From assembly GCA_010093705.1 (NCBI GenBank), contig MU006116.1:223424-262701 (forward strand): a DNA stretch of 39,278 nucleotides, in the 5' to 3' direction. Every line of letters begins with the position of its first letter. The first letter of the stretch is position 1. Positions 1 through 38,281 of this stretch are shown in pieces. The notes below the pieces were generated by a model, which worked only from the letters and a program-made list of their open reading frames with translations, was not told where the DNA came from and made no database searches. The translations under genes and the position numbers were made by a program. This DNA is from Patellaria atrata CBS 101060. Taxonomy: Eukaryota.

Positions 1-606
1 TTTGCGAATCCGTCGACTGATTTAGTGTGGAACCATACCCTGTATATGCCTTATGGCGAATCATACCTCGAACCCGATCCGAATATGGTTCCTACCGGCA
101 AAATCATCAAGGCTCCGAAAAACTCAACGAATGATTTCTGGAGCGAGCCTCATCAATTCGGCCGCGCCTTGAACAATTCCGACTTTGTCGGCAACTGTGG
201 AACGGCGTCAGGATGCGCAGGCTACAACAACCAATGGCTGATTAGGGGTAAGAAGCGGACCAAGCCTGTTGCAACCCTGCGCAGTGACTGGAGCGGAATT
301 TCGGCCAAGTTGAGCACAAATCAAGATGGTTTGGTCATCTACACTTGTTATTGGTTTGATGGCATGACCCCTGTAAAGAGTACTCAGGGTGTTCAAGGAC
401 AAGACAGGACGATTAAGAGCAGTGGATGTGTTGCTATTGAAGCTCATGATTGGGTGGATGGAATTAATCAGTGAGTATTATTCCGATGTGAATATGCATG
501 AATGCTAATGGTATCTAGCCCCGAGTGGAATAGAATGGATAAGCAAGTATTCGGTCCAGGACAATTGTACGAGTGGGACAGCACGTGGGCCTTCTCAGCT
601 TCCTAG
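1..606 (+). CDS. Aldose 1-epimerase (galactose mutarotase-like) family protein, 3' part only
   Basis: Frame is open from base 1 (FANPSTDLVWNHTL...). It carries mutarotase-like segments TNQDGLVIYTC and CVAIEAHDWVDGIN. Intron 471-518 (GTGAGT..GCTAAT..CTAG) joins to HPEWNRMDKQVFGPGQLYEWDSTWAFSAS*, stop 604-606. Confidence 0.85.
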
Positions 607-2019
607 ACGCGATGTAGAACCGCTCGTAACGTGTACGCTAAATACAAAAGGATTTTTTTTAAAAAAAATAAAAATATAAATGCAAGCACTGCATATATAC
701 TCTAATATCATACATTTGGCAGATAAGCTCGCTTATGTTATAACATGTACAGAGTAACAAATCTGCTAGAGCGAAAATCTGAAATGTAAGAGTATAGTAG
801 GTTTACGAGCCGCTGCAATACGAATATAGGTACTTCCGCGATCTCTTTCATTCTCGAAATTAAATTAGCCGTAATGTTCACCTTTTCATATGATATATCA
901 AGGTGTAAAATTTATAAGTTCAACTCTCCTGAAGTCAGAAAGCAAACATTTTCCAGCCATTATACATTGTAACATTCCCCTAGAAGCACCACTGTCAGGA
1001 TTGACTGAAAAGTGATATCTAACCCAAGATGAGACAACTTGCGCCCACACAGTGAGGCCCACGGAGAATGTTCTTCCAATTGCAGGAAGTGTCGATATCT
1101 GTGCCCGCAAGAGGTCTATCCAGGTCGGACAGATTCATGGCACGGGAGTTCAACAATAACTTTCCACCGTCCGTACGGGAAAGAGCTGACTCATCTGCAG
1201 CGAAGGAGCAGAGCCACACGGAGCCCTCTAGTAAGCAGCTCAGTAGTGAGAGCTACCTATACAGGATTCTTCTCCGCCGTCAAAAAGTGATACTCCTCGG
1301 GCTGAGGCTTAAGGTTATCTCAGTTTTCAGATTCTCTCCGAGGTGTGTCATCGTAGTCACGCTTTGCGCTCCTTTTAATCCGCGTTAACCGTATTTAAAT
1401 AACTATTAATACATTAAATTTAAGGTTACTATTATCAAGTTTTTAATTAATTAAAATATAACTAAATTTTTAGTAATTAATATTTTATAACAAGTTTTAA
1501 GATAAATAATATTGTTACTGACGGGAGATTTATACTTCTCTAAGCTGGAACCAGATAGGTATAAACACGCGCAAGGTTGCTCACAGGTGAGGACCTCCTT
1601 CCTAGAAGGGTAGGTTTCCGCTTCGTGATAGGACGTGCAAAGGTTGCACTTCGAGTTGACGATACAACTCGCTTCCCCTTAACTCTCTCTCAAAAGCTTC
1701 CACGGTAGAGACAAGTGATACTGTACGAACACAGTATAACAAAGGTGAGTTAAGTCAAAGATCGTAACATCCAGCCTTATAGTAAGATATGTGGGTAAGA
1801 AGAACTACGAAGAATCTAAATACATGCGTAAAGGAGCGTCCTTAAGTATTCCTTCCTCACAGTCCTATTTGATGTGCTCGATGCTCGCTGCTCGATACCC
1901 TTCGAGTCCTCCTTTGAAAGTAAACCACAGAGGGGAATGTTGAGGGAAGTGGAACTGAAAAGCAGAGGTATATTGCAAGAATCTTGATCATCCTTAGCTA
2001 GTGAGATGTAGACATGCAC

Positions 2020-2730
2020 ATTTATACCGAGTACATCTATATGATCTCATATGTATTCATTGTAAGTTAGCTTTGCTATATCATCCACTCTCATTGACTG
2101 ATATCTGCTCTTCCAGATTTTCCGAACGTTCTCCATAGTATGGCAGTAACTTATGATAAGTCAGTCAGGGTCACCAGTTTGAACTGTCTCTCTCTTGGTA
2201 TCAGCTTCGTTATCGGTCTACGAAGCTGTGCACCTTTCATTAAACGGGTAAGCTTCTTTACCATAGTGGTTGACTGAACGGGGCCTTTGAACCAACAATT
2301 CCTAGATCAACGTCTATCTAAAAGCTTGGTATTGTACAATACAATAACTCGTGACGTCCAGAGTTTACCCTCAGGTTCATTGCCCCGCAGACATCTTAAT
2401 CTATGACTGGAGACTCACTGTAGTGACGCACTAAATCTGGCCCAATATCGGCGCCCGATTGTTCGCGATGGGAAATAACATCGGCCTCTAGTGTGCCGAG
2501 ACGTACGTTGTTGACGCTTATACGGTGCACATAGCCAGCGCAACGAGTACGACATCCTTCGTGACAAACATGGCAAAGCTTCGGCATTTCCGTTATTCCC
2601 TCCAACCCTTTACGATAAGTTTGGACTGCACTGAGAATATTTTACTTGGGTTTGTGGGACTGGACTAGAGCATTGTGAGCTCCATTCTTCTGTGAATGCG
2701 GGGTCAGCGGTTGAGATTTAGAACACTTCC
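2020..2730 (+). pseudogene. Decayed MFS (DHA1-type) efflux transporter, C-terminal half
   Basis: Recognisable fragments: SLNCLSLGISFVIGL..APFIKR, RPEF, IWPNIGARLFAMG, ETYVVDAY..IASA, LFPPTLYDKFG and GQRLR. Introns at 2062-2116 and 2248-2305. Several stops and frameshifts. Confidence 0.75.
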
Positions 2731-3905
2731 TGCTGGGGATAAGCAATGGTTTCATTTTGAACTCATAATAGAAAAACCTGCACGGTTTTCAACTGGTATA
2801 CAGTGAGGGGCCCCCTCTAACTGTGTGGCCATGAGAGAATATCGTTCACGGAGTCTCATCTCCTCTGGTTCTCGAGTGAGTTAGCTTTTAGCTAAAATTA
2901 GAATGTTTCTTGCGTTCCCAGGTAAAGGTAGATGAGAATGTTCTGTGTCTCCTGAGAGACTGACTGAACTCTCGATTCTACTAGACAGTGAGTGATATCC
3001 CTTCCCCTACTACGACTGGCAGCCGCCTACCTCTATGCAATACGCTTATCAAACAAGTGCTGACAGTATGAACAGACCTCCATTAACTTCGCACTTGAGT
3101 CCTAGATATGGTTAGAAGCTGATCAGGTATGTCATAATTTTCATATAGTGCGCCCTAGAAAGGATAATCAGCAGTTATCATACTGAACGCTCAATCTCGA
3201 CTGTGAGGTTGAACTGCATATCGACCGTAGGCTACAGCCCCCAAATAGGCTCAAGCAAACCCAGTTGCGGTTATGGGGTCAGATGTCTTAGGGTTGTTAC
3301 CATGCTTCAAGCTCGACCTATCATAGGGGGGATGTTCCCAAATGCATGCTTGACCTGGCTGCAAAAGACCCGACCCCGCGTTCCCGTTCGCATTCAAGAT
3401 CCACCTCCACGGCACGTTGGGTAGATAGTCTTTTGTGGCGTTCAATACTGTGCTTTGCTTCGACGCCGGATTGCAAGGGAAAGCCCCTTGCGTTATATTC
3501 TTGAGAATTAAATTGGACCCAAAAATAGAAATTCTTCACCACTTCCTCATGTTCTGAAGCAAACAATAATATCTTATCATCCCTGGCAATTGGTCCGTGT
3601 CGAAATCGGTTCCCGAGACAAGATATTGTTCAGGTAGTGACGATTGAGACGATGAATATATGCCCTACGTGTATGCAATCAGCAGAAAGTGGAAGAGCTT
3701 TCAAAGTATGAAGCCATGGACGGTTACACTGAAAGAATGCACATCATGCAATCTACCATCGAGTACTGCCTGGAACCCAGAATATTTATATTTCATAAGT
3801 CCGCTTTATATTTCTGTTTTGTTTATTAACGCCCTCCTTTTGCAGCAGACATTGAGGATTTAAGTCGAACCAAAACATCGAGTCCAAGAACGTGAATCAT
3901 CCAAA

Positions 3906-4955
3906 ATGCGGTTTCTTGATTGGCTTATTGCTGCATCGTTTGCGGCGGCTTTACCTGCCGCTCAGTTGGTGAGATCGTCGGTTCTTGTAAGAGTTCTATT
4001 CATGTTCCCCTCAAGATGTCACGGCGCAAGTATAGGGTAGCTTATCCCCCTAGGTCAAACCACGAATAGTTTCGGCTGGGACTAAACTTCCTCTGCATGG
4101 AGAAATTGTACCTGTATGTAATGTAGCTCTACTTGCCAAAGGTTGTATTGCCGGAACTGACGGTACAAAATAGATCAAGGAGAGATGTTTAGACTCAGAG
4201 GATTCAGATAACTTCGTCCCAGTAGGTCTAACAGGCGCATACTGAGGTCCTGTATCTTACGACGACAATGTGGTAGATCAAAGCTCGTAACACCTTGGCG
4301 GAAGCCGATAGAAGTAAAAATGTCTCTTTACTAAGTGTGGATGAGAGTGGTGCCGTCCCTGTACGTACTTGTATCTTCGATCTATGGCGTTAATAACTGT
4401 GTGCATGGAGCTGATCGTATAGCTGTAGATCAAAAAGCGTTGTCTCGATACCGGAAGGTCGGATGATTTTGTACCGGTAAGTACATCGGTGCATGTGTCA
4501 AGGACAGGTATCTCATGACTGCACTGCGGTAGATCAAAGCTCGAAGTGATGTCGGAGGCGTTTCCTTGCTAAGTTTGGATGAGGACGGTGCGGTGCCAGT
4601 ACATAACCTCATTAGTAGTTGTTGGACAATTACAACTGACATTTCCGTAAGATCAAAACGAGGACCGAAGATAGTAGGGGGTCTCAACTAGTGAGTTTTC
4701 TTGCACCACTCAAATAAGCGAAGGTGGTAACAAAGCCTCTTCTAGTCTAAGGAGCGTTCTCCTTCGCCTTTGGACAGGGAATTTTGTGCCGGTATGTTAG
4801 GTTCGATATACCAGTAAAGGAATGAAGTTTGCTAAGGAGTCATAGATCAGCGTTCGCTCGGCCCAGTCTAAGGAAGGCAAGGATTTTGTCCCTGTACGTA
4901 AATTTCCAATAGTAGCCACGAAAGAGCTGGCCACTTACACATATTCTAGATCTAA
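3906..4955 (+). CDS. Secreted repeat-peptide precursor encoded by small phase-0 exons (one exon has a 1-nt frameshift)
   Basis: Exons 3906-3986, 4054-4113, 4174-4221, 4277-4360, 4429-4476, 4533-4598, 4652-4690, 4746-4791, 4846-4893 and 4950-4955. Nine GT-AG introns of 53-68 nt. Signal-peptide-like start MRFLDWLIAASFAAALPA; repeats of the form IKxR...VP. Confidence 0.75.
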
Positions 4956-5393
4956 AATATGTTCTTCGTCGTGGATTCCTATTATAGTAGGTTCTAAACT
5001 GGATGATTGTTATGGAGCGAGTGTTTACTCCGTAGAAAATACACATTTCTTTGTCACAGAAGCCGAGGACAGTTTCAGCGTGGGATATGGCGGTAGTTTT
5101 CTGATGGTAGATGAGTTTCCATTCTCTTGACATCATCTTCAACTATTTCAACCATCTACCCTTCAATCATATAATATAGGTTTATATCCTCCAGTTATAT
5201 TCAGATAGGAAGCTCTGAAAATTGGGCCTCGGACTCAGGAATATAATTAATCCGCCAGTTTCTTTCAGCAGAACTTGAACACTGAAGACGTAAATCAGAA
5301 CTATCGTATGTTGGTATATAAGGTATGGAGTACTGAACGTTTTGGAGCACCTACGTGATCACGAGGTTCGCGTCTGAGCCCGAGACTTACCCG

Positions 5394-5422
5394 ACTCGAC
5401 GCGTTTACCCAACGCGTCGAGT
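5394..5422. promoter_or_regulatory. Palindrome containing two MCB (ACGCGT) boxes upstream of the Pif1 helicase
   Basis: ACTCGACGCGTT-taccc-AACGCGTCGAGT, with 12-bp perfect arms. ACGCGT at 5399-5404 and 5412-5417, about 150 bp before the ATG at 5573. Confidence 0.6.
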
Positions 5423-5572
5423 TACTGCAACGCACTCTACCTTAATTTTTTATTCACAGATTACCATTATGTCCCCTTCAATTTAATACGACTTCAGGAT
5501 ACTAAAGATCTGTTTATCGAATCCTTTATTTATACTCAATATCTGCGACAATATCAATACTCAACATTTTTC

Positions 5573-7525
5573 ATGGACGACTTTCGTACTCATCGGAATC
5601 CTGTCCAAGTCCCTCCACTCGCTCGAAATCATTCCGGACAAGACTTGAAGAGAGATCGCTCTCAAGTCGATATTGGTACAGCGTACGATGCTTCATACAG
5701 CTTTAAACGGCGCTCGTGTAATTCTACACGTTCAGTTCCGAGGGAGGTAGAGGTGATTAGTCTCCTCTCATCAGACGAGGAAGATGAGTGTATTCCCTTA
5801 CCACACACCACTCTCCGATCATTCCGTGCTCAGATATCAGGCCAAGTACACGATATTACCTCGAGCCGAAAACCTTTGGGTGACATCAGCAATTTGGAAT
5901 CAGTACACAACTCCAGCCTGCCAGATGTGTCGCCGACATTGAAGACTGAAATTTACTTGTCTTCTAACGCCTCCCCTCGCGATCCAGCCGTTATACCAAC
6001 GGAGCCGAAACTGTGCAAAGAACAGCAGGATTTAGTGGACCTCATATCAAGCGGAAAGAACGTATTCTACACTGGATCTGCAGGGTGTGGAAAATCCACT
6101 GTCCTTAAAGCTTTCGTGAAGCGTCTGAGGAACGAAGGTAAACAAGTAAACATTATTGCACCTACTGGCCGGGCAGCGTTGGATATCAACGGGTCTACTA
6201 CTTGGACGTACGCTGGATGGACGCCGGATAGTCACAAGAAGGCGATCAAGAAACTACGGGAAGCAGCACACGGCAAATTCGTCATGAAACGGCTCAAGGC
6301 TACAGATGTTCTGGTCATTGATGAAATCTCTATGGTAGAAAATTTACATTTTGAACGTATCAACCACCTCATGAAAGAGGCTAGGCGTAGAGAGGACGCT
6401 TTCGGAGGCGTTCAGTTAGTCGTTACCGGTGACTTCTGCCAACTTCCTCCAGTTAAACCATTCCAACACTGCATCGAATGTGGGAGAGAACTGCAAGCCA
6501 ACCTAACTCAAACGGAGTATACTTGCGTAGAACATGGAAAATACTTTGACATCGATAAATGGGCCTTTAGGAGTAAAGCTTGGGGGGAGTGTCGCTTCGT
6601 CCACGTGAATCTGACAAATATTCATAGACAGAGCGACAAAGTTTTTATTGATCTTCTTCAGCGTTGTCGTCTAGGACTAAACCTCTCGCAGAAGGACGAA
6701 GATCTTCTCCTCAATCACCCCTCATCAACTGAGAATGCAGTGAAGCTGTATTCAACTCGGGAAGAAGTACGTCGGGTTAACCTAGAGGCATTTCAAAAGC
6801 TCCGAACTCCACCTATCCGTTACAGGTGTTACGATCACTTTAGGCACAATCCGGAGCACAAACATTTACGGTGGAAAACCGCGAGGAGCCCTTTCGATAA
6901 CTCATTAACTGCGCTCCAAGACCATCGATTCGATGCTTGGATTGAGGTGAAAGAGGGTATGTTAGTCGTATTACTAGTCAATCTCGACCTTCAAGCCGGT
7001 CTCGTCAATGGTAGCCAGGGCGTCATAGTTGGTTTTGAAGAGTACGACCCTGCAAAGCTCCCAAAGGCGCTTTCTGAATCCGAAAAACGGAGTAATGCTT
7101 CTATCCCTAATGTCCTCATTGGAGATCATGTTCATCTTCGCGAAACAAATATCCAAAGGTTCATTGACCAAGCAGATCGAAAAAAATGGCCAATTGTTCA
7201 TTTCGACAACGATGTGACTCGCACAATATATGCGGATTGTCGTGTGCATGAACTAGGCGACGAACTGCCGTATAGTCTGCTCTCGCGAACGCAGATTCCC
7301 TTGACAGCGGCATGGGCTATGACGATACACAAATCACAAGGTATGACTCTAAACAGAGTTGTCGTCAATTTGTCGAAGAACTTCGAAGAAGGTCAAATGT
7401 ATGTTGCGCTATCGAGAGCGCGGAGTCTTGAAGGACTGAAAGTTGAAGGATTGGGGAGTTGTATGGGTGGTGGGAATGAGCAGGTGAAGGAGTTTCTGAG
7501 GCAAAAGTTTGGAATAATGGGATAA
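5573..7525 (+). CDS. Pif1-family 5'-3' DNA helicase (650 aa, intronless)
   Basis: Motifs FYTGSAGCGKS, APTGRAA, LVIDEISMV, FGGVQLVVTGDFCQLPPV, HRQSD, GLVNGSQG, QIPLTAAWAMTIHKSQGMTL and GQMYVALSRA. Confidence 0.95.
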   Translation: MDDFRTHRNPVQVPPLARNHSGQDLKRDRSQVDIGTAYDASYSFKRRSCNSTRSVPREVEVISLLSSDEEDECIPLPHTTLRSFRAQISGQVHDITSSRKPLGDISNLESVHNSSLPDVSPTLKTEIYLSSNASPRDPAVIPTEPKLCKEQQDLVDLISSGKNVFYTGSAGCGKSTVLKAFVKRLRNEGKQVNIIAPTGRAALDINGSTTWTYAGWTPDSHKKAIKKLREAAHGKFVMKRLKATDVLVIDEISMVENLHFERINHLMKEARRREDAFGGVQLVVTGDFCQLPPVKPFQHCIECGRELQANLTQTEYTCVEHGKYFDIDKWAFRSKAWGECRFVHVNLTNIHRQSDKVFIDLLQRCRLGLNLSQKDEDLLLNHPSSTENAVKLYSTREEVRRVNLEAFQKLRTPPIRYRCYDHFRHNPEHKHLRWKTARSPFDNSLTALQDHRFDAWIEVKEGMLVVLLVNLDLQAGLVNGSQGVIVGFEEYDPAKLPKALSESEKRSNASIPNVLIGDHVHLRETNIQRFIDQADRKKWPIVHFDNDVTRTIYADCRVHELGDELPYSLLSRTQIPLTAAWAMTIHKSQGMTLNRVVVNLSKNFEEGQMYVALSRARSLEGLKVEGLGSCMGGGNEQVKEFLRQKFGIMG

Positions 7526-16018: not shown

Positions 16019-18121
16019 TCACGGCCATAACCCCCCTTGACCGAAACCCTCCGTCTTGACAATCCATTCTGAAGGCCAGGATGTTCTATCAGCTGCCATC
16101 ATAGCAACAGCAAGTAGTAAACCTCCGCTCGCTGGAAAATATGGCGTTGGAACTCTCGTTCCGCCAACCGGCATCCCTACATCATCAAATTTGTATTCAT
16201 CGTGCAACAAGAACCCTACAGCGCGTTCCGCGTCTCCAAACTTAGCGGCAGCCATGGAAAACAGTGGAAAATCCCAACCGTATGAAAAGGTGAAGTTCCA
16301 TGTTTCGAAGATCTTATCAAGTGTAGCTCGCATGATCGTATTGTTAATATTCAAACCTGACGGCAGTAGGGCAATGGGCATTAACATGGTAGGATGGTCT
16401 TCTGTGTATGCTGACGTATTCCACATGTCCCCGATGCCTTCGTAAGTCACATACATCCCGTCCTGTATGGGTAAAGGAGCTAGGTTGCTTGCCACTTCTG
16501 TCCACGTTGCCGGTACCGGTTTGCCTTGACGTCGTTGCCATTTCGACGCAACGTCCAGACCAAATCGCCAGTACGCTAATTCATACATTGGGTTTCGAGT
16601 GGCGTTTGGGGGTGTATTTTCCGAAGCCGGATACATGGGGGGGCCAAGGTCATAGAAACTGGTCGTCTGATTGAAGAAGGCGTAACTAGTCATAAAGTCG
16701 GCAGTCCCTTTGATAATCGCATCCCATTTTTTCAGCGTACGATGCTTGTTCTGTGACCTAGAGTACTCTAGCTCTGCAAAGAAGATTGGATGTGGTTGCT
16801 GCCAGATGAGGAGACTGTTAATTTCTCCTGGGGCCGATCGACCCGTTGGATCGCTCATTTTCCCCCATCTAGCTCCGGTGTAGCCTTGATTACGAGCTCT
16901 AGGGAAGCTAGCAGCAAGGAATCGCTCGTAGACCCCTGGTACATGAAGGTTTAGTATCTGTCTTTTACCCCAAAGGATCCAGTGGGTGGAATGCCAGATA
17001 ACCATCTCAAGGTGAAACTTCCCGTACCAGCCGTTGTTGACCAGACCTGATTCTTGCGGGGGGTCTCGGGAGGCTCCATTCACGGCTAGAAGGTATTGAG
17101 AGAGTATGATGCGGCGTTGTAGCTCTGTAGCAGACTGATTAGCGCTGGAGGTGAGATCAACGAACGCGCCCGTTGACCAATACTCTTCCCAATGGTCAGA
17201 TGAAGCAGATTTGACGTTTCGAAAGTCTGGTAAATGAGCAGGCTCGGAGGGCGAGAAGTTGACGGTAAAGGTTAGAGTATCACTAAACGGCGACCTTAAC
17301 ATAAATCTGTGTCTAGAGGATCCAAGGCGGTCTAGTTTCGCTTGTCCTTGCCATCTAATGCTGGTGAAATACGTTGTTGTGTCGAGATTATGCCTGATAT
17401 GAGCCTCCTGATAGGTCTTTTTGAGGGTGGTTGTGTGCTTCTCGGTCGCATTCCATACGCCAACAAAGGGGGCCTCGAACTTTGTTTTACCATCTTGACC
17501 ATAAGGGAAATCGATAAATATTGACAACTGACCCAAGGACAGAAGTGATGTCTTCACCTGAACGGCTATGGCATCTCGATTCGGATCTGCAATGGTTTGC
17601 ACAGTAACTTCATGCGCGCCTAATTTGAAAGACGAATGAATCACTCCAGAGTAAAGATCTAAATACTGTTTTGTCTTAGTCAAATCCTTCTCTGTTACGT
17701 TACTCGAGAAATCAAAGCCGACCCTGGCGAGGTTGATTCTATGTGGATTTCCTATCAACCATTGGGATATATCTCGCTGCGCGGGATTGGGCTGATTGTA
17801 GGTAACAAGTCTCCCATGGGTCCACCATTGTAGTCCAGTAAAATCATCTATCGATGTCTGACCCGGAGTTGTTGGTAAGGAGACATTGTGCCAACCCCAC
17901 GAGGATAACGTGTTGAAGGGACGGAAGGTTTGGAGCCCAGTTATATCTGCGCCGAAACCCAAATTTCCATTCCCAACCTGCATAGGTGTATCATCGGAAG
18001 ATGCATTGCGGTAGGGGTTGAAACGAGTAACAACTCTACGTCGGTCGATGGTAGTACTCGTACATATTGTAGGAAGAATGGCGTGCCATAAAAGCAGCAA
18101 GCTAGTCAGGGAAATCAGCAT
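16019..18121 (-). CDS. Secreted six-hairpin glycosidase-like protein of unknown substrate (700 aa, intronless)
   Basis: Signal peptide. IDR..VV.RFNP and VGNGNLGFGADITGLQT at the N-terminus; ELQRRIILSQYL, PPQESGL..N.WYGKFHLEM, LIWQQPHPI, GWDFP and YFPASGGLL resemble (alpha/alpha)6 glycosidases. Confidence 0.75.
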   Translation of the reverse strand: MLISLTSLLLLWHAILPTICTSTTIDRRRVVTRFNPYRNASSDDTPMQVGNGNLGFGADITGLQTFRPFNTLSSWGWHNVSLPTTPGQTSIDDFTGLQWWTHGRLVTYNQPNPAQRDISQWLIGNPHRINLARVGFDFSSNVTEKDLTKTKQYLDLYSGVIHSSFKLGAHEVTVQTIADPNRDAIAVQVKTSLLSLGQLSIFIDFPYGQDGKTKFEAPFVGVWNATEKHTTTLKKTYQEAHIRHNLDTTTYFTSIRWQGQAKLDRLGSSRHRFMLRSPFSDTLTFTVNFSPSEPAHLPDFRNVKSASSDHWEEYWSTGAFVDLTSSANQSATELQRRIILSQYLLAVNGASRDPPQESGLVNNGWYGKFHLEMVIWHSTHWILWGKRQILNLHVPGVYERFLAASFPRARNQGYTGARWGKMSDPTGRSAPGEINSLLIWQQPHPIFFAELEYSRSQNKHRTLKKWDAIIKGTADFMTSYAFFNQTTSFYDLGPPMYPASENTPPNATRNPMYELAYWRFGLDVASKWQRRQGKPVPATWTEVASNLAPLPIQDGMYVTYEGIGDMWNTSAYTEDHPTMLMPIALLPSGLNINNTIMRATLDKIFETWNFTFSYGWDFPLFSMAAAKFGDAERAVGFLLHDEYKFDDVGMPVGGTRVPTPYFPASGGLLLAVAMMAADRTSWPSEWIVKTEGFGQGGLWP

Positions 18122-20174
18122 GGTGTAATTTCTTCAGGAGAGAAAACATACCGTGAAGTCACAGGCCATGGCTATGGGCTTTAAGTCGTTGTCGATATGA
18201 CGATATTAAGGTGATACCAGGTTTAGAGGAGTGATTTCAGCCGCGATAGGTTTTACTGTAGTTCTACTGTATGAAGCCCCGCAGCTACCTTCTTATATTA
18301 CTGCCACCTCACTACCTTACCTCCCCGCGGTCATACATCAGTCTTATATTTTCTGTATCTGGAGTAATTCATGTCAATCGAGTGCATGGAGAAGACTGAG
18401 GCCATCGAAATGTTGGAGAGTCGTTTATCCAGTAGTTCTACAGTATCTATTAGTGCACAGTTTCGCACCAATTGCTGTAGTACTGTAAAAGTCAAAGAGA
18501 AAATACAAGTCTTTCCAATTTTCGTTTCCAACCAGCAGATTAAATATCAATGCTAACGGAGTAGAACTACAGTACAATATGAAGCGTCTCAATTTCCCCC
18601 CCAAAAAAGGCAGGTTCAGCGTCAACTCCCTGAACCTATTTCCGCATGTCTGTATCCTCTCTCTCCACTTCTTTAGAGTGCTGTGAGCAGAGTTTAAAGG
18701 TATTGTTTATTTTTGTTCGCTCATAGCAAAATTCGTGAAAGGTCAATTTCGATGTGTCCTCCTTTTAACGTATTTCCTTATGGATTACAGCACTACGCCC
18801 GATTTTGGGCTTCATGCCAGTCGGACAATGGAGGCCTGACTTTCTAGAACTAGAAATGATCCCTCTAGTTTCCTCGTTCACACACCTGGAGATTTCCCCA
18901 TCCCAAATTCCAGTCATAATGGGTTGCTGTCGAGGTATTTGGACATATAGAGAAGATTGCAGTTGTTGTAAAGAGTCTCGTCGAGAACGGGCATCCAGTC
19001 CAAGTTATACGTGGAAGACAGTTCGAAGAAATGGATGAGAAAACAGGGGCTACGTTCGTTCGAGTATACACAGTATGGTCCCTACGGTTTGTTCGAGGTG
19101 AAACAACTAGAGCATCTGCAAACACTCAACGGGGAGGAGAAGCACCTTTCGGCAATCATGCTTGATCAGATGAAGAGCAAATATAACACAGTGCAGTGAG
19201 TACTTCGGGATTCCCGTCGCGATGATCGACGGGGAGCATTCAAAATTATTCCTCGACTTCTAAGTTCCGTTTCTATGGTAGGTCGGCGAGTTTTGGGACC
19301 TCTACTTGTAGTTCTACTGTACTGGACTGTACGTACATAAGAAATCAAGCAACATGACTCCCTCCTATTAGCTCTACTCCTACTCCTACCAGGCGAATCA
19401 ATATGCATTGCACCGCAGTTTTCGGTGTTGGATTTGGGGTTTTGCGATGCTAGTTCTCTATCTGACTGGCTGCGAGACAATGCTTCTCGCTCCTTCGTGC
19501 TGGGTGCAAGGGGCGGGACTTTTGGGGGCCGCAGTGATCTCCATCTCCCGGTTTTCCAGAAATTGTTCCCTGGAATCTTTTTCTTCCACCTCATAGTCTT
19601 TCCAGAACGATGACAATAGTTTCTTCGTAAAAGGGAGCTCGTCCTATACTTCCTCGCATGAATCTATGACCCGATCCAATGATCAAGCAGTTGCAAAGAA
19701 GCAACTTGTAACGCGAAGAGACTAGATACTAGACGATGTACCAAATCTGATTCAATGACAGAAGGCCCAAAAAAACACCAATGTAGGACGGGGGCGGAGC
19801 CATCCATCGCACAGATCCTATCCTGTCCAGATACACCTGCAGCTATTATCACGTACCTACCTTAGTCCTAGGACTGCACTATACTCGGCAAACTTCGAAC
19901 GTTGGTGGCTACCTCCAATGGAACCTCCATCAAGTCCCCGATGGACGTTACCACGTTTTCTAGTGTCTGTCCACACTTAATGCCTGCTTCTCTCCTGCTT
20001 TTCATTTCTATCATAATACGGTAGTCATTCTGATACTATACTACTAAGCACTGTCATTACTTGGTTAACCCCCTTCCACTACCTAGATTCTGAGGTATCA
20101 ACAAACACTACTACTTCCACTTATCTCTCGCCTACTATAATAGGACCCCCTTTTCTACAAAGAGCTTAGGATTT

Positions 20175-29717: not shown

Positions 29718-30728
29718 CAATTGATACGCTGCCAAGGTCTTTTAAAAACCGAAGTCAAAAAGTATTTCATGTTCTTATTTCTACTACTGAGAGAAATAGC
29801 TAACCTGTCTACACAGATAGTGGGCTGGTTGTTCGACTGTTTGATCTATGCAACGATCGCGCTGGACTTGCGATTGAAATAGGCCCTCCACCATTTCTTC
29901 TTTACGGTTTAGATAGAGATATTGGTCTTTATAACAATAATTTAACCAGTTCTTCAATCTCGAAATGACTTTGCTTTATCGATCAGCATTGATCAGTTCT
30001 ATAGCTTTGTTAATCGAATTGTTTTTTTCCCCGGCAAGGGGAAAGGCAAGCTTTGATCGAAGCACGGGAAATTTTTTGCACCGTTTTAATAGAGTGAATC
30101 TGCTTGTGATAAGCATGAGTTTGAGCTCTATTGAATTATCACGGCGGTAGCAATTCAAGGCCCCATTAAAAGGTTCAAAAGGTTTGCTCGCCACGGCTAA
30201 TTACATATTGCTTTAATACATACCTTGGAGCTTGCTCTTTGTTTTCCGTCGAAAGACAGAGGAAACACAATCAGACCATATATGACGTACGATGTCCTGA
30301 TAGGTGCTATTGCCTAGTCAATCATTAAGCAAAGTATAACATGAAATATAAGTTTGCAGTTCCCAGATTAAGCAAACTAAGCCTCCTTCCTTTCTTCTGG
30401 TTCAAGCTATCCTCAACTATCTCATACAATCAATCAGTTTGCTTTCTACCCAAAAGCTCTTTGCTATCTTCTTATACTTCCCTATCAATCGAACAATCAC
30501 TTGGTGTAAAGCATATATAGTTGGAGAGAAAGCTGTCATGCTGTTAATTAATTCCCTTAATTCGAACTTGGCTAATAGAAAAGATATTTTTCCAACCGCC
30601 TAGAGTTCATCTGTCCTCTGCCTACGCATACTTCTCGTTACATAATACGGTGAGTCCAACAACGAAAATAAGGCGGTGTAGCCACACCTAAGTTGACAAT
30701 GGTCATGTTATTACCACCAGTTGCTCCC

Positions 30729-32711
30729 ATGTCCAATTTGAAACAAATAGTTATCGGGTTATATGGTGTTCCTGGTGTGGGGAAGACGTTTCTACTCGCT
30801 GGCTTAAAAGAAAGCTTTGGAGAGGAGGAGTACGATTTCTACGAGGGATCTGAGATGATTTCCAAGGTTGTCCCTGGCGGCCTCAACGCTTTCCACAAGC
30901 TAGAGAAGGAAGAGAAGGCCCATTGGCGCCAGGTTGCTATAGACAAGATTCGTGAAAGAAGTGCCAATAACAGGAAAGTCGCAGTGGTCACTGGACATTT
31001 CATGTTTTGGGACGAGGAAAAAGAAGCTGGATATACAGTTATGACGCGCAAAGACTTGGAGGTGTATTCCCACATAATCTATTTAGATATTCCCACGGCT
31101 ATTGTGCTGCGACGTCGGTCGGCCGACAATGATAGAGCTCGAGCCCCGGTTTCTGAAGCGCATTTAAGTAAATGGCAACAGGATGAAAAGACTCAGCTTC
31201 GAGATCTATGCCGAAGACATGGCATTCTGTTTTTAGCCATGTCCAAACCTTCACCAAGAGCTGTCTTAACGCTTTTGCGTGATTTTGGCAAACATTCTGA
31301 GTCCTACAATACATCCGTCGCAGTGAGGGAACTGGACAGCGTGATTACCGCTGAACAACCTGGCTTAAACACAGCAGTAGTTCTCGATGCCGATCGGACT
31401 TTGGCCCCGGAGGACACGGGTTCCCTGTTCTGGAAGAAACTCAAGGGTAGAGAATCTACTTTGAAGGAGTTATTTAGTGGCCCTTTGCAATACTCATATA
31501 CCGCTTTCCGTCAAGCTTCATTACTGCATGAAGAGGTTACTGATGATGACCAATTCGAAGCTTTGTGCCGCACAATAGCAGGAGAGGTAACAATGTACCC
31601 CGAGTTTAAATCTTTGTTGAAGGTGGTAGCAGAAGAAAACCACACTCAAGCGGTGGTGGTTAGTTGTGGTCTGCGCAGAGTTTGGGAAATGGTGTTGGAG
31701 AGAGAAGGTGTCTCTCACTCAGTAAAAGTCATCGGTGGGGGACGTATTTCAGACGGTTTTGTCGTGACAGCAAATGTAAAAGCTGCTCTAGTCCGCCAGT
31801 TGCGAGCTACCCATGGCATGCATGTTTGGGCCTTTGGAGACAGTCCGTTGGATCTCGAGATGTTGAAAGAAGCCAATCACGCCGTAGTAGTGGTTGGCGA
31901 CGAGACAAGCAGAAGTAAGACGATGGAGGCAGATTTAAGGTCCTCTATCGCAAAAGGACTACGTACCCGTCAGGCTTTACTCCCCCCTGATGTTCTTCCT
32001 CGTCTGGACCCCATGATTCTTCCTATAGTTAGCTTTTCGGAAAGGGGATTCATTGATTCTATCATAAACAATCATCGCAAGCCTGATATACGGGTTATCG
32101 AAGCGACGAATACGAATGCTGCTAGATTACTCATGACCGCCACACGTGATGAGAGACATTGTGGACCAATGCTAAGAGAAGCTCACCGTCGTATTGGAGC
32201 TTACTTGGCAACACATTTCCTTACGGAATTGATTGGCATTGAAGAGTATTTGATCCCACATGTACAAGGCCACAAGACAAGCGGTTACCGGCTGTTAAAT
32301 GAAGACAAGACATCAGTTGTTGCTCTAATGCGGGGTGGTGAACCAATGGCTTTGGGTGTCAACGATGTGTTCCCGCTCGCCATGTTTATCCATGCTAGAT
32401 GTCCAGTTGACATTGAACTTCAGCACCTTGCGGGTCAAACTACCGTTTTGCTGGTGGACTCAGTGGTGAATAGCGGGAAAACGGTGGTTCAGTTTATTGA
32501 ACGGGTACGTGAATTAAATCCTACTATTCGCATCGTTGTAGTTGCAGGCGTCATCCAAAGTAGATCAGTCCGCGGTGAAAATCCTAATCAAGGACTAGCT
32601 AGTCAAAGAGATGTTAGTCTTGTCACTTTACGGTTATCTGAGAATGCATTCACTGGTAGAGGAACGACTGATACTGGTAACCGACTCTTTAATACCACAC
32701 ATATCTGTTGA
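30729..32711 (+). CDS. P-loop nucleotide kinase-like / HAD phosphatase / uracil phosphoribosyltransferase-like fusion
   Basis: P-loop GVPGVGKT; HAD motifs DADRT, VSCG, K and GDSPLD; PRTase motifs ALMRGG, VLLVDSVVNSGKT and DTGNRLF. A likely 5' intron at 30650-30720 (GTGAGT..CAG) places the start at ATG 30729. Confidence 0.88.
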   Translation: MSNLKQIVIGLYGVPGVGKTFLLAGLKESFGEEEYDFYEGSEMISKVVPGGLNAFHKLEKEEKAHWRQVAIDKIRERSANNRKVAVVTGHFMFWDEEKEAGYTVMTRKDLEVYSHIIYLDIPTAIVLRRRSADNDRARAPVSEAHLSKWQQDEKTQLRDLCRRHGILFLAMSKPSPRAVLTLLRDFGKHSESYNTSVAVRELDSVITAEQPGLNTAVVLDADRTLAPEDTGSLFWKKLKGRESTLKELFSGPLQYSYTAFRQASLLHEEVTDDDQFEALCRTIAGEVTMYPEFKSLLKVVAEENHTQAVVVSCGLRRVWEMVLEREGVSHSVKVIGGGRISDGFVVTANVKAALVRQLRATHGMHVWAFGDSPLDLEMLKEANHAVVVVGDETSRSKTMEADLRSSIAKGLRTRQALLPPDVLPRLDPMILPIVSFSERGFIDSIINNHRKPDIRVIEATNTNAARLLMTATRDERHCGPMLREAHRRIGAYLATHFLTELIGIEEYLIPHVQGHKTSGYRLLNEDKTSVVALMRGGEPMALGVNDVFPLAMFIHARCPVDIELQHLAGQTTVLLVDSVVNSGKTVVQFIERVRELNPTIRIVVVAGVIQSRSVRGENPNQGLASQRDVSLVTLRLSENAFTGRGTTDTGNRLFNTTHIC

Positions 32712-35923: not shown

Positions 35924-38281
35924 GTTACGAGCCCGGACTTTGTGTTGTTTTGAAGCCGTACATCTTGCTCAATTTCGATCCGTTTATACTCATCTCATTT
36001 TGAATCGATATATTCGAATCTTTTGAAGTCAGCTGTGCTGCTCCACCGTTGTTTTTACCTATCTCTTGTGCTATCAATTTAGATATGTCGACTTCAACAA
36101 ATCCTTCGTCTCAAGTGGCCACAGTCACTCTGAAAGATGCCTCTGACTGGCACAATTGGTACTATCTTATCAAGAATCAGGCGGAAATGGAAGATATCTG
36201 GGAATATTGTGATCCAGATCTTCAAGAGAAACCTGAGTTACCATCATCACCGCCCAACCGGCCAATGTGAAAGAATGGCTCCGTACAGGCACTCCACCAA
36301 CTGGAGAGACCCAAGCATCTATGACCGGATTGTACACCTCGTTTAGAGCTAACGCCAGAGATCAATCAGAAAAGAGAGCCAAGATCGTGAAACTCTATTC
36401 TCTGATTACGAGTACTGTTCCAGCCAGCAACCTACCGTTAAGTGAGGAGACGAAAGAACCATACACCCTTTTAAAGAAGCTTAAGTCAAGATTTAAGCTT
36501 GAAGACCGGACGATTCGGAACGAAGCATACAGCAGGTATCTACATCATCTGCGAACAATTAGAAAGAGAGATATTGACGCTTGGTGTACAACTTACCTAG
36601 GCTTGTATGAAGACTGCATCCGTTTTAAAGTCCCCGAAGTGGCCGGAGAAGGTCCAATTAGGGATCTACTAAACACTCTAGCCAAAACCTATGAACAATG
36701 GGCAACAGCCAAAGCTGTCAACGTAAACGACCAGCTCGACGCAAATGAAAAGGTCGAAATTTCGATGATCATATCTCAATTCCGCAATTACCACAAAGCC
36801 CAGACAATCAAAGACCCAGTTGGAGGTGTGTTTGCTGCACTCCAAGGCCAGTCTCTCGATGAATCCACCACACAAGCTATTGTTTCCACGGCAAAGAAGA
36901 CGTCTAGAAATGGCCGTCTTAAGAAGTGCCTTTGTGGGAAAGACCACCGTTGGGGAGCCTGCCCTTATATCAATCCACGAGCTACAAAGCCAAAAGACTA
37001 TTCCGAGACCACCCAAAAGCTCGTTGATACCAAGATTTTGGAGCTAAATGAGTGGCAACGACTCGCAATCCAGAAAATTCGAACATCTAGGCCAGAGAAG
37101 GCTAAAGATGAGAAGGAAGACGCCTCTAAATCTGACGACAATCGAAAAGGAGACATTGGTATGTTCGTTGGAGCAAAGTTTTCGGGTCCTGCAGACATCG
37201 TGTTGGCAAATGCACGTTCTTCTAACAAACACTGGCTTCACGACTCCGTTCTTCTTGATTCGGGATCTAGCATCATATAACCAACGATCGGTCAAATTTT
37301 GAGATTGAAAGTTACTGCGATAATCGATGGATTGAAGTAGGAAAGGGGTCATGCCAGATATTAGCGAAAGGCAGGTGGACAATTGAAGTTGAAGGACTAG
37401 AGGGTACCCGAAGAATGATTTTCAGGGAAGCTTATCTCTGTCCGGACTTTAATGCCTCTGTTATTGGTCTCAAAAGCCTTAGAAAACGGGGAGAATTTTG
37501 GAACCACCGTCGTGGCTGTCTTGAGTACGAAAACGGAGATATGATGTGTAAAGTTTTGGAAAAAGGCGACCATTATCTATTGAACTATAAAGATGTTGTT
37601 CAAGTCGGATCAGTATTTACTGCTCACAAATCAACAGACCCAAACCCTCCAGTAAGCGCAACAAGTAGACGTTGGCATCGGATTATGGGCCATTCCGGGC
37701 CTGAGGCAATCAAGCATCTTACTACCGATGTAGTAGGAGCAGAAATAGATGGCAGAGGACCATCTACAATTGATTGCGAGGTTTGTGCTGTCTCAAAGGC
37801 AACAGAAATTGTCAGTCGACGCCCTTTAGACGAGCCGGCAACACGGATTTTCCAACGGGTATCCTATGATATTGTATCATTCCCACCGGGTTATAATGGC
37901 CATCGTTATCTCACCCACTACCATTGCGACTACTCTCACTGGATTGATCTAGAGACGTTAGCGACAAAGCTAGAGACGAATGAAAGTAATCGCAAGTATT
38001 TTAAACGCACCAGAACTCAGTTTGGAGTTGAAATTCAAAGATTCAAAAGTGACAACGAGACAGCGTTAGGAAAAGCTCACAATAGGCTTTTAGATGAGAC
38101 AGGTACGATAGCAGAGCCTTCAGCTCCGGATACTCCAGCCTAGAATGGTGATGCTGAACGATCTGGAAGGGTGATTATTACCAAGGCTCGTTCCATGTCC
38201 ACTGATTCTATGATCCCTTGGGAGCTTTGGACGGAAATTGTAGCAGCAGCAGTGTTTATTAACAATCGGACACCTCATCGA

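Follow-up and report, generated by a model that had tools for sequence, protein, structure and literature searches.

We analysed a 39-kb window of fungal nuclear DNA (39,278 nucleotides (nt) of contig MU006116.1 of Patellaria atrata CBS 101060; all positions below are positions in this window) in which a hidden gene had been predicted on the forward strand at 3906–4955, inside a repeat region that appears to be non-coding. The original prediction described ten short exons, one peptide repeat per exon and a secreted, protease-processed product. Our results point to a genuine, apparently unannotated small-exon orphan gene that carries a frame defect, and the gene is best read as a precursor resembling the Kex2-processed repeat proteins (KEPs). 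It is very probable, from the sequence, that the region is a coding gene or was one until recently, and the deduced N-terminus makes it probable that the product is secreted. The reading as a multi-peptide secreted precursor with aliphatic-x-x-Arg sites, in which both secretion and cleavage are deduced steps, is more tentative and in our judgement falls slightly short of an even chance.

Exon–intron architecture of the region

The coordinates, the nine intron lengths and the donor hexamers of the original prediction were all reproduced by script, and the nine exon peptides were found at their expected places and frames. Exon 1 (3906–3986, 81 nt) holds the start codon and a signal-peptide-like N-terminus of 27 amino acids (aa). 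Intron 1 (3987–4053, 67 nt, GTAAGA..TAG) leads to exon 2 (4054–4113, 60 nt), which encodes VKPR plus 16 aa ending in IVP, and intron 2 (4114–4173, 60 nt, GTATGT..CTGAC..TAG) to exon 3 (4174–4221, 48 nt), where IKER is followed by a 12-aa core that starts with Cys and ends in NFVP (type A). Beyond intron 3 (4222–4276, 55 nt, GTAGGT..TAG), the 3' part of which is 79% identical to intron 5, exon 4 (4277–4360, 84 nt) encodes IKAR and a 24-aa core ending in GAVP (type B). The same order of types returns after intron 4 (4361–4428, 68 nt, GTACGT..CTGAT..TAG) with exon 5 (4429–4476, 48 nt, type A; IKKR and a 12-aa Cys-first core ending in DFVP), intron 5 (4477–4532, 56 nt, GTAAGT..TAG) and exon 6 (4533–4598, 66 nt, type B; IKAR and an 18-aa core ending in GAVP).

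The 3' part of the gene is less regular. Intron 6 (4599–4651, 53 nt, GTACAT..CTGAC..AAG) is followed by exon 7 (4652–4690, 39 nt), a degenerate repeat of IKTR plus 9 aa without the VP end, and intron 7 (4691–4745, 55 nt, GTGAGT..GTAAC..TAG) by exon 8 (4746–4791, 46 nt), which starts with SKER, has its FVP end in another frame and could be either a frame-breaking exon or a skipped pseudo-exon. Intron 8 (4792–4845, 54 nt, GTATGT..TAG) precedes exon 9 (4846–4893, 48 nt), which reads ISVR plus 12 aa ending in DFVP when taken in phase 0. After intron 9 (4894–4949, 56 nt, GTACGT..TAG), exon 10 begins at 4950–4955 with ATC TAA, which is like the usual ATC AAA exon start except that the second codon is a stop.

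All nine introns have GT..AG ends, with TAG as the acceptor in eight and AAG in one. A strict CTRAY branch point lies 12–14 nt from the acceptor in 3/9 introns and the looser NTRAY in 5/9. Two regularities that had been claimed were confirmed: seven of the eight internal exon lengths are multiples of three (chance 0.0026) as against 2/9 intron lengths, and codon 4 is Arg without exception in the eight internal exons. Introns 1–7 are all in phase 0. Because a repeat corresponds to an exon, every intron would fall in phase 0, at the P/I junction between repeats. A repeat search recovered two junction families, one of TAG/ATCAAA-type exon starts and one of TTGTNCC/GTA-type exon ends, and two longer pairs, of which one links exons 4 and 6 and the other introns 3 and 5. 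Tandem Repeats Finder reported 0 arrays in the region because the units are too diverged at the DNA level.

The label 'micro-exon gene' that had been given to the locus holds for the short symmetric exons. It is a loose term here, since internal exons of 39–84 nt go with short introns, which sets the gene apart from schistosome micro-exon genes (MEGs).

Substitution pattern, codon usage and splice signals

The strongest coding result is the substitution pattern between paralogous exons. When the unit 4174–4428 was aligned to 4429–4651, identity was 71/114 in the exons and 60/107 in the introns, and the sole exon gap was one block of 18 nt (6 codons) between exon 4 and exon 6. Nei–Gojobori counts over the alignable exon pairs (3/5, head of 4/6 and tail of 4/6) gave proportions of synonymous (pS) and non-synonymous (pN) differences of 0.86 and 0.16 in the model frame, a ratio of 0.19, whereas the two remaining frames gave ratios of 1.13 and 1.30. 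The excess of synonymous over non-synonymous change was significant (Fisher P = 3e-9), and of the differences 8 fell on first, 4 on second and 21 on third codon positions (binomial P = 3.5e-4). Exons 3 and 5 have 11/16 residues identical, with 12/20 nucleotide differences at third codon positions; the tail of exon 4 and exon 6 have 11/13 residues identical, with 7/10 differences at third positions. With pS at 0.86 and pN at 0.16, purifying selection has preserved the peptides as silent sites came near saturation.

Codon usage was scored with a table trained on four long open reading frames (ORFs) that the window also contains. The model frame of the exons scored +19.7 bits, their other two frames –40.1 and –89.3 bits, and the introns –73 to –85 bits. 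Per codon, the exons scored 0.114 as compared with 0.156 for the training genes. Exon 1 by itself scored +3.1 bits in the model frame, with –8.0 and –7.4 in the other frames, and exon 9 scored +2.9 bits in phase 0. The way the exons have diverged, their codon usage and their lengths together bear out the claim of a real protein-coding gene, rich in introns, in which each symmetric exon holds one repeat.

Splice signals were also concentrated in the region. The junction motif GTNCCNGTA occurs in 7 copies here as against 4 in the remaining 76 kb (window, both strands), TAGATCAAR in 4 copies as against 1 in the rest of the window, and intron-like candidates at 17.1 per kb as against 1.87 per kb elsewhere. 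When donors were limited to the forms seen in this gene, a rule set after the fact, the region gave a chain of 7 introns, and chains longer than 2 were found in 0/300 dinucleotide shuffles and 0/114 other window tiles. The a priori donor rule GTRNGT was uninformative because the chain must start at the ATG and the exon 1 donor, GTAAGA, fails the rule. As a comparison, neighbouring genes have introns of similar size by frame-joining, inferred models (63 and 47 nt in an ABC transporter, 63 nt in a GH10 gene).

The encoded protein and its putative cleavage sites

Hand criteria agreed with the signal-peptide-like N-terminus that had been proposed. Arg is at position 2, residues 6–16 form a hydrophobic core with a mean Kyte–Doolittle (KD) value of 2.0, and the (–3,–1) rule places candidate cleavage sites after residues 15 or 18. 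Beyond this N-terminus, all eight repeats start with [I/V/S]-[K/S]-x-R and 6/8 end in VP. The residues that follow the junction Arg are, from exon 2 to exon 9, IV, CL, NT, CL, SD, TE, SP and SA. Type A cores are found in exons 3 and 5, with exon 9 resembling these just in its frame, its length of 48 nt and its DFVP ending, and type B cores are found in exons 4 and 6 only.

The IKKR of exon 5 is the single canonical KR among the eight sites, as had been noted, and the original prediction had left the protease uncertain for this reason. It is less uncertain than was stated. According to PMC8528282, Kex2 nearly always has Arg at P1, prefers Leu at P4 and otherwise takes an aliphatic residue there (Ile, Val, Ala or Pro), and leaves P3 free. 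The junctions fit this expanded motif at 7/8 sites: P1 is Arg at 8/8, and P4 is Ile (six sites) or Val (one site) at 7/8, with Ser at the eighth. P2 is one of the well-tolerated residues Lys, Thr, Pro or Glu at 5/8 junctions. By our analysis, cleavage at the xxR sites may well occur, at odds a little worse than even.

We propose that the gene grew by tandem duplication of exon-plus-intron units, and that the two-exon unit of exons 3–4 was duplicated to give exons 5–6, so that two core types alternate. Exon 1 would supply the signal-peptide-like N-terminus and exons 2–9 one repeat each, with a [I/V]-K-x-R start and usually an F/A/I-V-P end; the type A core would be a Cys-first acidic 12-mer and the type B core 18–24 aa ending in GAVP. 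The protein would enter the secretory pathway, a Kex2-type kexin would cut after the Arg of each [I/V]-K-x-R and a Kex1-type carboxypeptidase would then remove the basic C-terminal residue or residues. The expected products are a small set of acidic peptides that includes two Cys-first acidic 12-mers and two longer peptides of the form ...VSLLS.DE.GAVP, all four with a short C-terminal extension, and in addition some unique pieces.

It is a property of the phase-0 layout that any of exons 2–7 or 9 can be gained or lost without a change of frame. A wider proposal is that the locus is a peptide-cassette gene in which each symmetric exon brings one peptide and the kexin site that goes with it, and in which exon duplication, exon loss or regulated skipping (for example of exon 8) vary the secreted mix, and that it is a fungal counterpart of the MEGs that gene finders and dibasic-site KEP screens have missed. 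We regard this as improbable.

Exon 8 breaks the reading frame

The spliced product given in the original prediction is not what the DNA encodes. Exon 8 has 46 nt and its start and end lie in different frames. With all ten exons spliced, the frame shifts and translation stops at a TAA at 4869–4871 inside exon 9, giving 165 aa; with exon 8 left out, exons 9–10 are in frame and the product has 159 aa. In this strain the product would thus be a protein of 165 aa that breaks off in exon 9 or, if exon 8 is skipped, one of 159 aa. Exon 8 is 2 nt short of the 48-nt exons 3, 5 and 9, and a loss of 2 nt would be the simplest account of its length. Reading the sequence by eye, we saw no alternative GT donor or AG acceptor by which exon 8 would regain a multiple-of-three length. 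Two DNA runs compared with the window over 3404–5421 showed 0 differences at a word depth of about 320–480, and this agreement rules out a consensus slip at exon 8. In both runs contigs cross the intergenic DNA with no joint within 3906–4955. Both runs are probably the assembly's own data and hence not independent support.

The phase-0 frame of exon 9 runs open through intron 9 for 94 codons (4846–5130, forward strand) and is overlapped by a 100-codon frame on the minus strand (4840–5142). Retention of intron 9, if it occurred, would add a 78-aa tail to the product.

Annotation status and search for relatives

An exact look-up of four neighbouring ORFs in a protein collection found 2/4 (a 389-aa esterase and a 700-aa ORF; sources NCBI and UniRef), so the public annotation of this genome is represented there. 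An exon-ORF profile gave no match to proteins of 92–2000 aa in this collection (8000 candidates scored) or to proteins of 8–91 aa (132 candidates). Dozens of words would be common to the query and any protein that contains these exons. The exons are therefore absent from a public protein set that contains their neighbours, as expected if the gene is hidden, and it is reasonable, if not conclusive, to take the lack of a match as evidence that no gene model exists.

Relatives were sought with single exons or exon ORFs as queries. Pfam had no family for exons 2, 4 and 6 or the exon 1 ORF, for the 94-codon open frame at 4846–5127 (forward strand) or for the minus-strand ORFs at 4843–5142, 4281–4568 and 4053–4256, and Rfam had no match over 3300–5500. 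Given the queries, blanks of this kind are weak evidence. Two candidates were rejected. The sole match to the repeat profile was an 817-aa junk repeat that matched 'DGFVP' alone, and a locus from a metagenome scan lay on a contig of 65% G+C and matched only the intron-encoded tail of the query.

Weighing the readings

Several observations weigh against a KEP-like precursor. The signal peptide was assessed by hand criteria alone, and only 1/8 junctions is dibasic. At 3/8 sites P2 is Ala or Val, outside the well-tolerated P2 residues listed in PMC8528282. Each clear core type has just two copies, compared with the three or more asked for by published KEP screens. Only in exons 8 and 9 is the Arg followed by an XA/XP dipeptide of the STE13 type. 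Codon scores of exons 7 and 8 are near zero (–1.0 and –0.1 bits), and the frame break in exon 8 may mean that the gene is decaying. No relative with the 16-position repeat profile was found among 1.84 billion representatives, a result that is weak given the short single-exon queries. Lastly, a bare phase-0 GT..AG parse this deep arises by chance in 3–9% of controls.

If the last of these points is pressed, the region could be a decayed, non-coding repeat with an exon–intron parse that is due to chance. Phase-0 GT..AG chains of at least 7 introns (50–70 nt) did occur in 10/300 dinucleotide shuffles and 5/58 other window tiles, Tandem Repeats Finder sees no array, and the protein profile and Pfam searches found no homologue or family. 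However, a chance parse does not predict frame-specific synonymous excess, frame-specific codon usage, exon lengths divisible by three beside intron lengths that are not, or an extended donor consensus far above controls, and we find this reading hardly credible. A recently dead or dying gene, that is, a former repeat-peptide precursor that the exon 8 break has made a pseudogene and that may have lost expression, is easier to entertain. The 46-nt exon 8 beside the 48 nt of exons 3, 5 and 9, the missing VP end of exon 7, the low codon scores of exons 7 and 8, the absence from the annotation in the protein collection and the position in a gene-poor 5-kb stretch adjoining a high-copy repeat are all consistent with it. 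By contrast, exons 1–6 (125/142 codons before exon 7) are free of stops and frame breaks, all nine splice-site pairs are intact, exon 9 keeps its consensus start, DFVP end, both splice sites and positive codon score, and the 165-aa product with all four well-conserved cores is still encoded. A gene that is dead or dying seems quite unlikely to us.

The coding and signal-peptide evidence applies equally to a secreted repeat protein that is left uncut, in which VP-IKxR would have a structural role or act as a linker and the Arg would be conserved for a reason other than cleavage. Such a repeat protein would be disordered and balanced in charge, for example a wall-associated or effector-like protein. 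The scarcity of dibasic junctions, the conservation of the cores as well as the junctions and the balance of charge in the mature part (21 Asp+Glu and 22 Lys+Arg in 141 residues) agree with this idea. On the other side, the most conserved element is the aliphatic-x-x-Arg at the repeat starts (Arg in 8/8, Ile or Val in 7/8), which is the expanded kexin site as published. Secretory proteins with many kexin sites pass the kexin of the Golgi. An uncut protein is a serious alternative that we think doubtful, and a KEP-like precursor remains the reading that we prefer.

Comparison with known precursors

KEPs are defined, in PMC9769878, by a signal peptide and cores that are flanked by dibasic sites, cut by Kex2 in the Golgi and trimmed by Kex1. 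A survey pipeline (PMC6339444) cuts at KR/RR, or otherwise at KK, and retains proteins that yield four or more fragments and contain three or more repeats. Earlier comparison of the gene with the KEPs agrees with the signal-like N-terminus and the repeats with Arg sites, but with its one KR the protein fails this operational definition (KR/RR/KK sites, at least 3 repeats). KEPs such as the alpha-pheromone and dikaritin precursors, Ece1/candidalysin and Rep1 share with our gene a signal-like N-terminus, repeated short cores with an Arg-ending site before each and a likely route through a Golgi kexin and a carboxypeptidase. The gene differs in having dibasic sites at 1/8 junctions, for which reason screens with the published design would miss it, and in alternating between two core types, each in 2 clear copies, and giving every repeat an exon to itself. 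Unlike alpha-factor-type pheromone precursors, for which STE13 sites and identical mature peptide copies are a feature (PMC9769878), it has XA/XP dipeptides in exons 8 and 9 only and its cores are not identical copies. The words 'intron' and 'exon' are absent from the main texts of two genome-wide KEP surveys, and no fungal precursor with one repeat per exon is described in the literature searched.

The I/V-K-x-R sites resemble those of the Kex2-processed pro-domain (K2PP) effectors with their expanded LxxR motif, which have an aliphatic P4, variable P3 and P2 and Arg at P1 (PMC8528282). In K2PP effectors a single N-terminal pro-domain is removed from a folded effector, whereas the present gene has 8 such sites, set between short repeats.

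Schistosome MEGs have exons of 3–81 bp that are symmetrically inserted, according to 10.1101/2023.06.21.545858. Like them, the present gene has mostly short symmetric exons that can be added or dropped in frame, its secretion being a prediction. The differences are that introns in MEGs can be as long as 5 kb, compared with 53–68 nt here, and that the exons here (39–84 nt) each hold a full repeat and a putative cleavage site, with the 84-nt exon 4 exceeding the MEG range as given there. No sequence relation to schistosome MEGs was found. MEG products are secreted and vary through alternative splicing. Expansion of peptides by unit duplication is also reported in animal multipeptide precursors such as the ant hymenoptaecin-type and amphibian skin peptide genes (PMC3415428, PMC3731216), and small exons of the same phase are reported for the secreted proteins of the aphid 'bicycle' micro-exon effector genes (10.1101/2021.09.24.461719). 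All of these are animal genes with sequences unrelated to this one.

If the gene is expressed, intron-dense genes of small exons can escape annotation, as this locus is absent from a collection that contains its neighbours, and screens restricted to KR/RR/KK are blind to precursors with aliphatic-x-x-Arg sites. It would be a clear case of growth by duplication of exon-plus-intron units among neighbouring genes that have few introns. The two conserved core types are concrete candidate peptides for synthesis and bioassay.

Surroundings of the locus

The gene lies in a stretch of about 474–5378 that lacks any ORF of at least 120 aa. An A/T-rich, TATA-like stretch at 3780–3815 (forward strand), about 90–125 nt 5' of the ATG, is a candidate core promoter read from the sequence. 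The locus is beside a high-copy repeat at 1335–2001 (core about 1580–1870), where the summed contig word depth in the two DNA runs is 13,168 and 17,941. On either side it is about 323 and 480, so that some 40 copies seem likely. There are many short variant contigs of this repeat, and long contigs end there. Directly 3' of the gene is a 715-codon open frame (5378–7525, forward strand) with a partial match to a PIF1-like helicase (PF05970, E = 3e-28), and its ATG-to-stop form was absent from the protein collection by exact look-up. This frame may be transposon-related.

The long ORFs of the window include, by Pfam, a fungal CE15 glucuronoyl esterase (PF22244, E = 8e-110), a GH10 enzyme, a zinc alcohol dehydrogenase, pieces of a PDR-type ABC transporter, a PIF1-like helicase and a remnant of an rve integrase. 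The esterase matches the PDB structures 4g4g (494 bits) and 3pic (467 bits), which are ascomycete enzymes, and more distantly 6rtv (392 bits), a basidiomycete one. ORFs of 650–700 aa in the window have no introns. Taken with the esterase matches, they make a filamentous ascomycete the probable source. One of these, a 700-aa ORF at 16019–18133 on the minus strand, has no Pfam family at E ≤ 0.001 and is a singleton cluster in the public collection. At 36237–38143 (forward strand), neighbouring open frames that match DUF6565 weakly and carry the core of an rve integrase look like a retroelement remnant. A single 679-codon frame at 30672–32711 (forward strand) joins domains of the AAA_17 kinase-like, HAD and uracil phosphoribosyltransferase types; the 670 aa from its ATG to the stop were not in the protein collection by exact look-up, so the public model probably differs.

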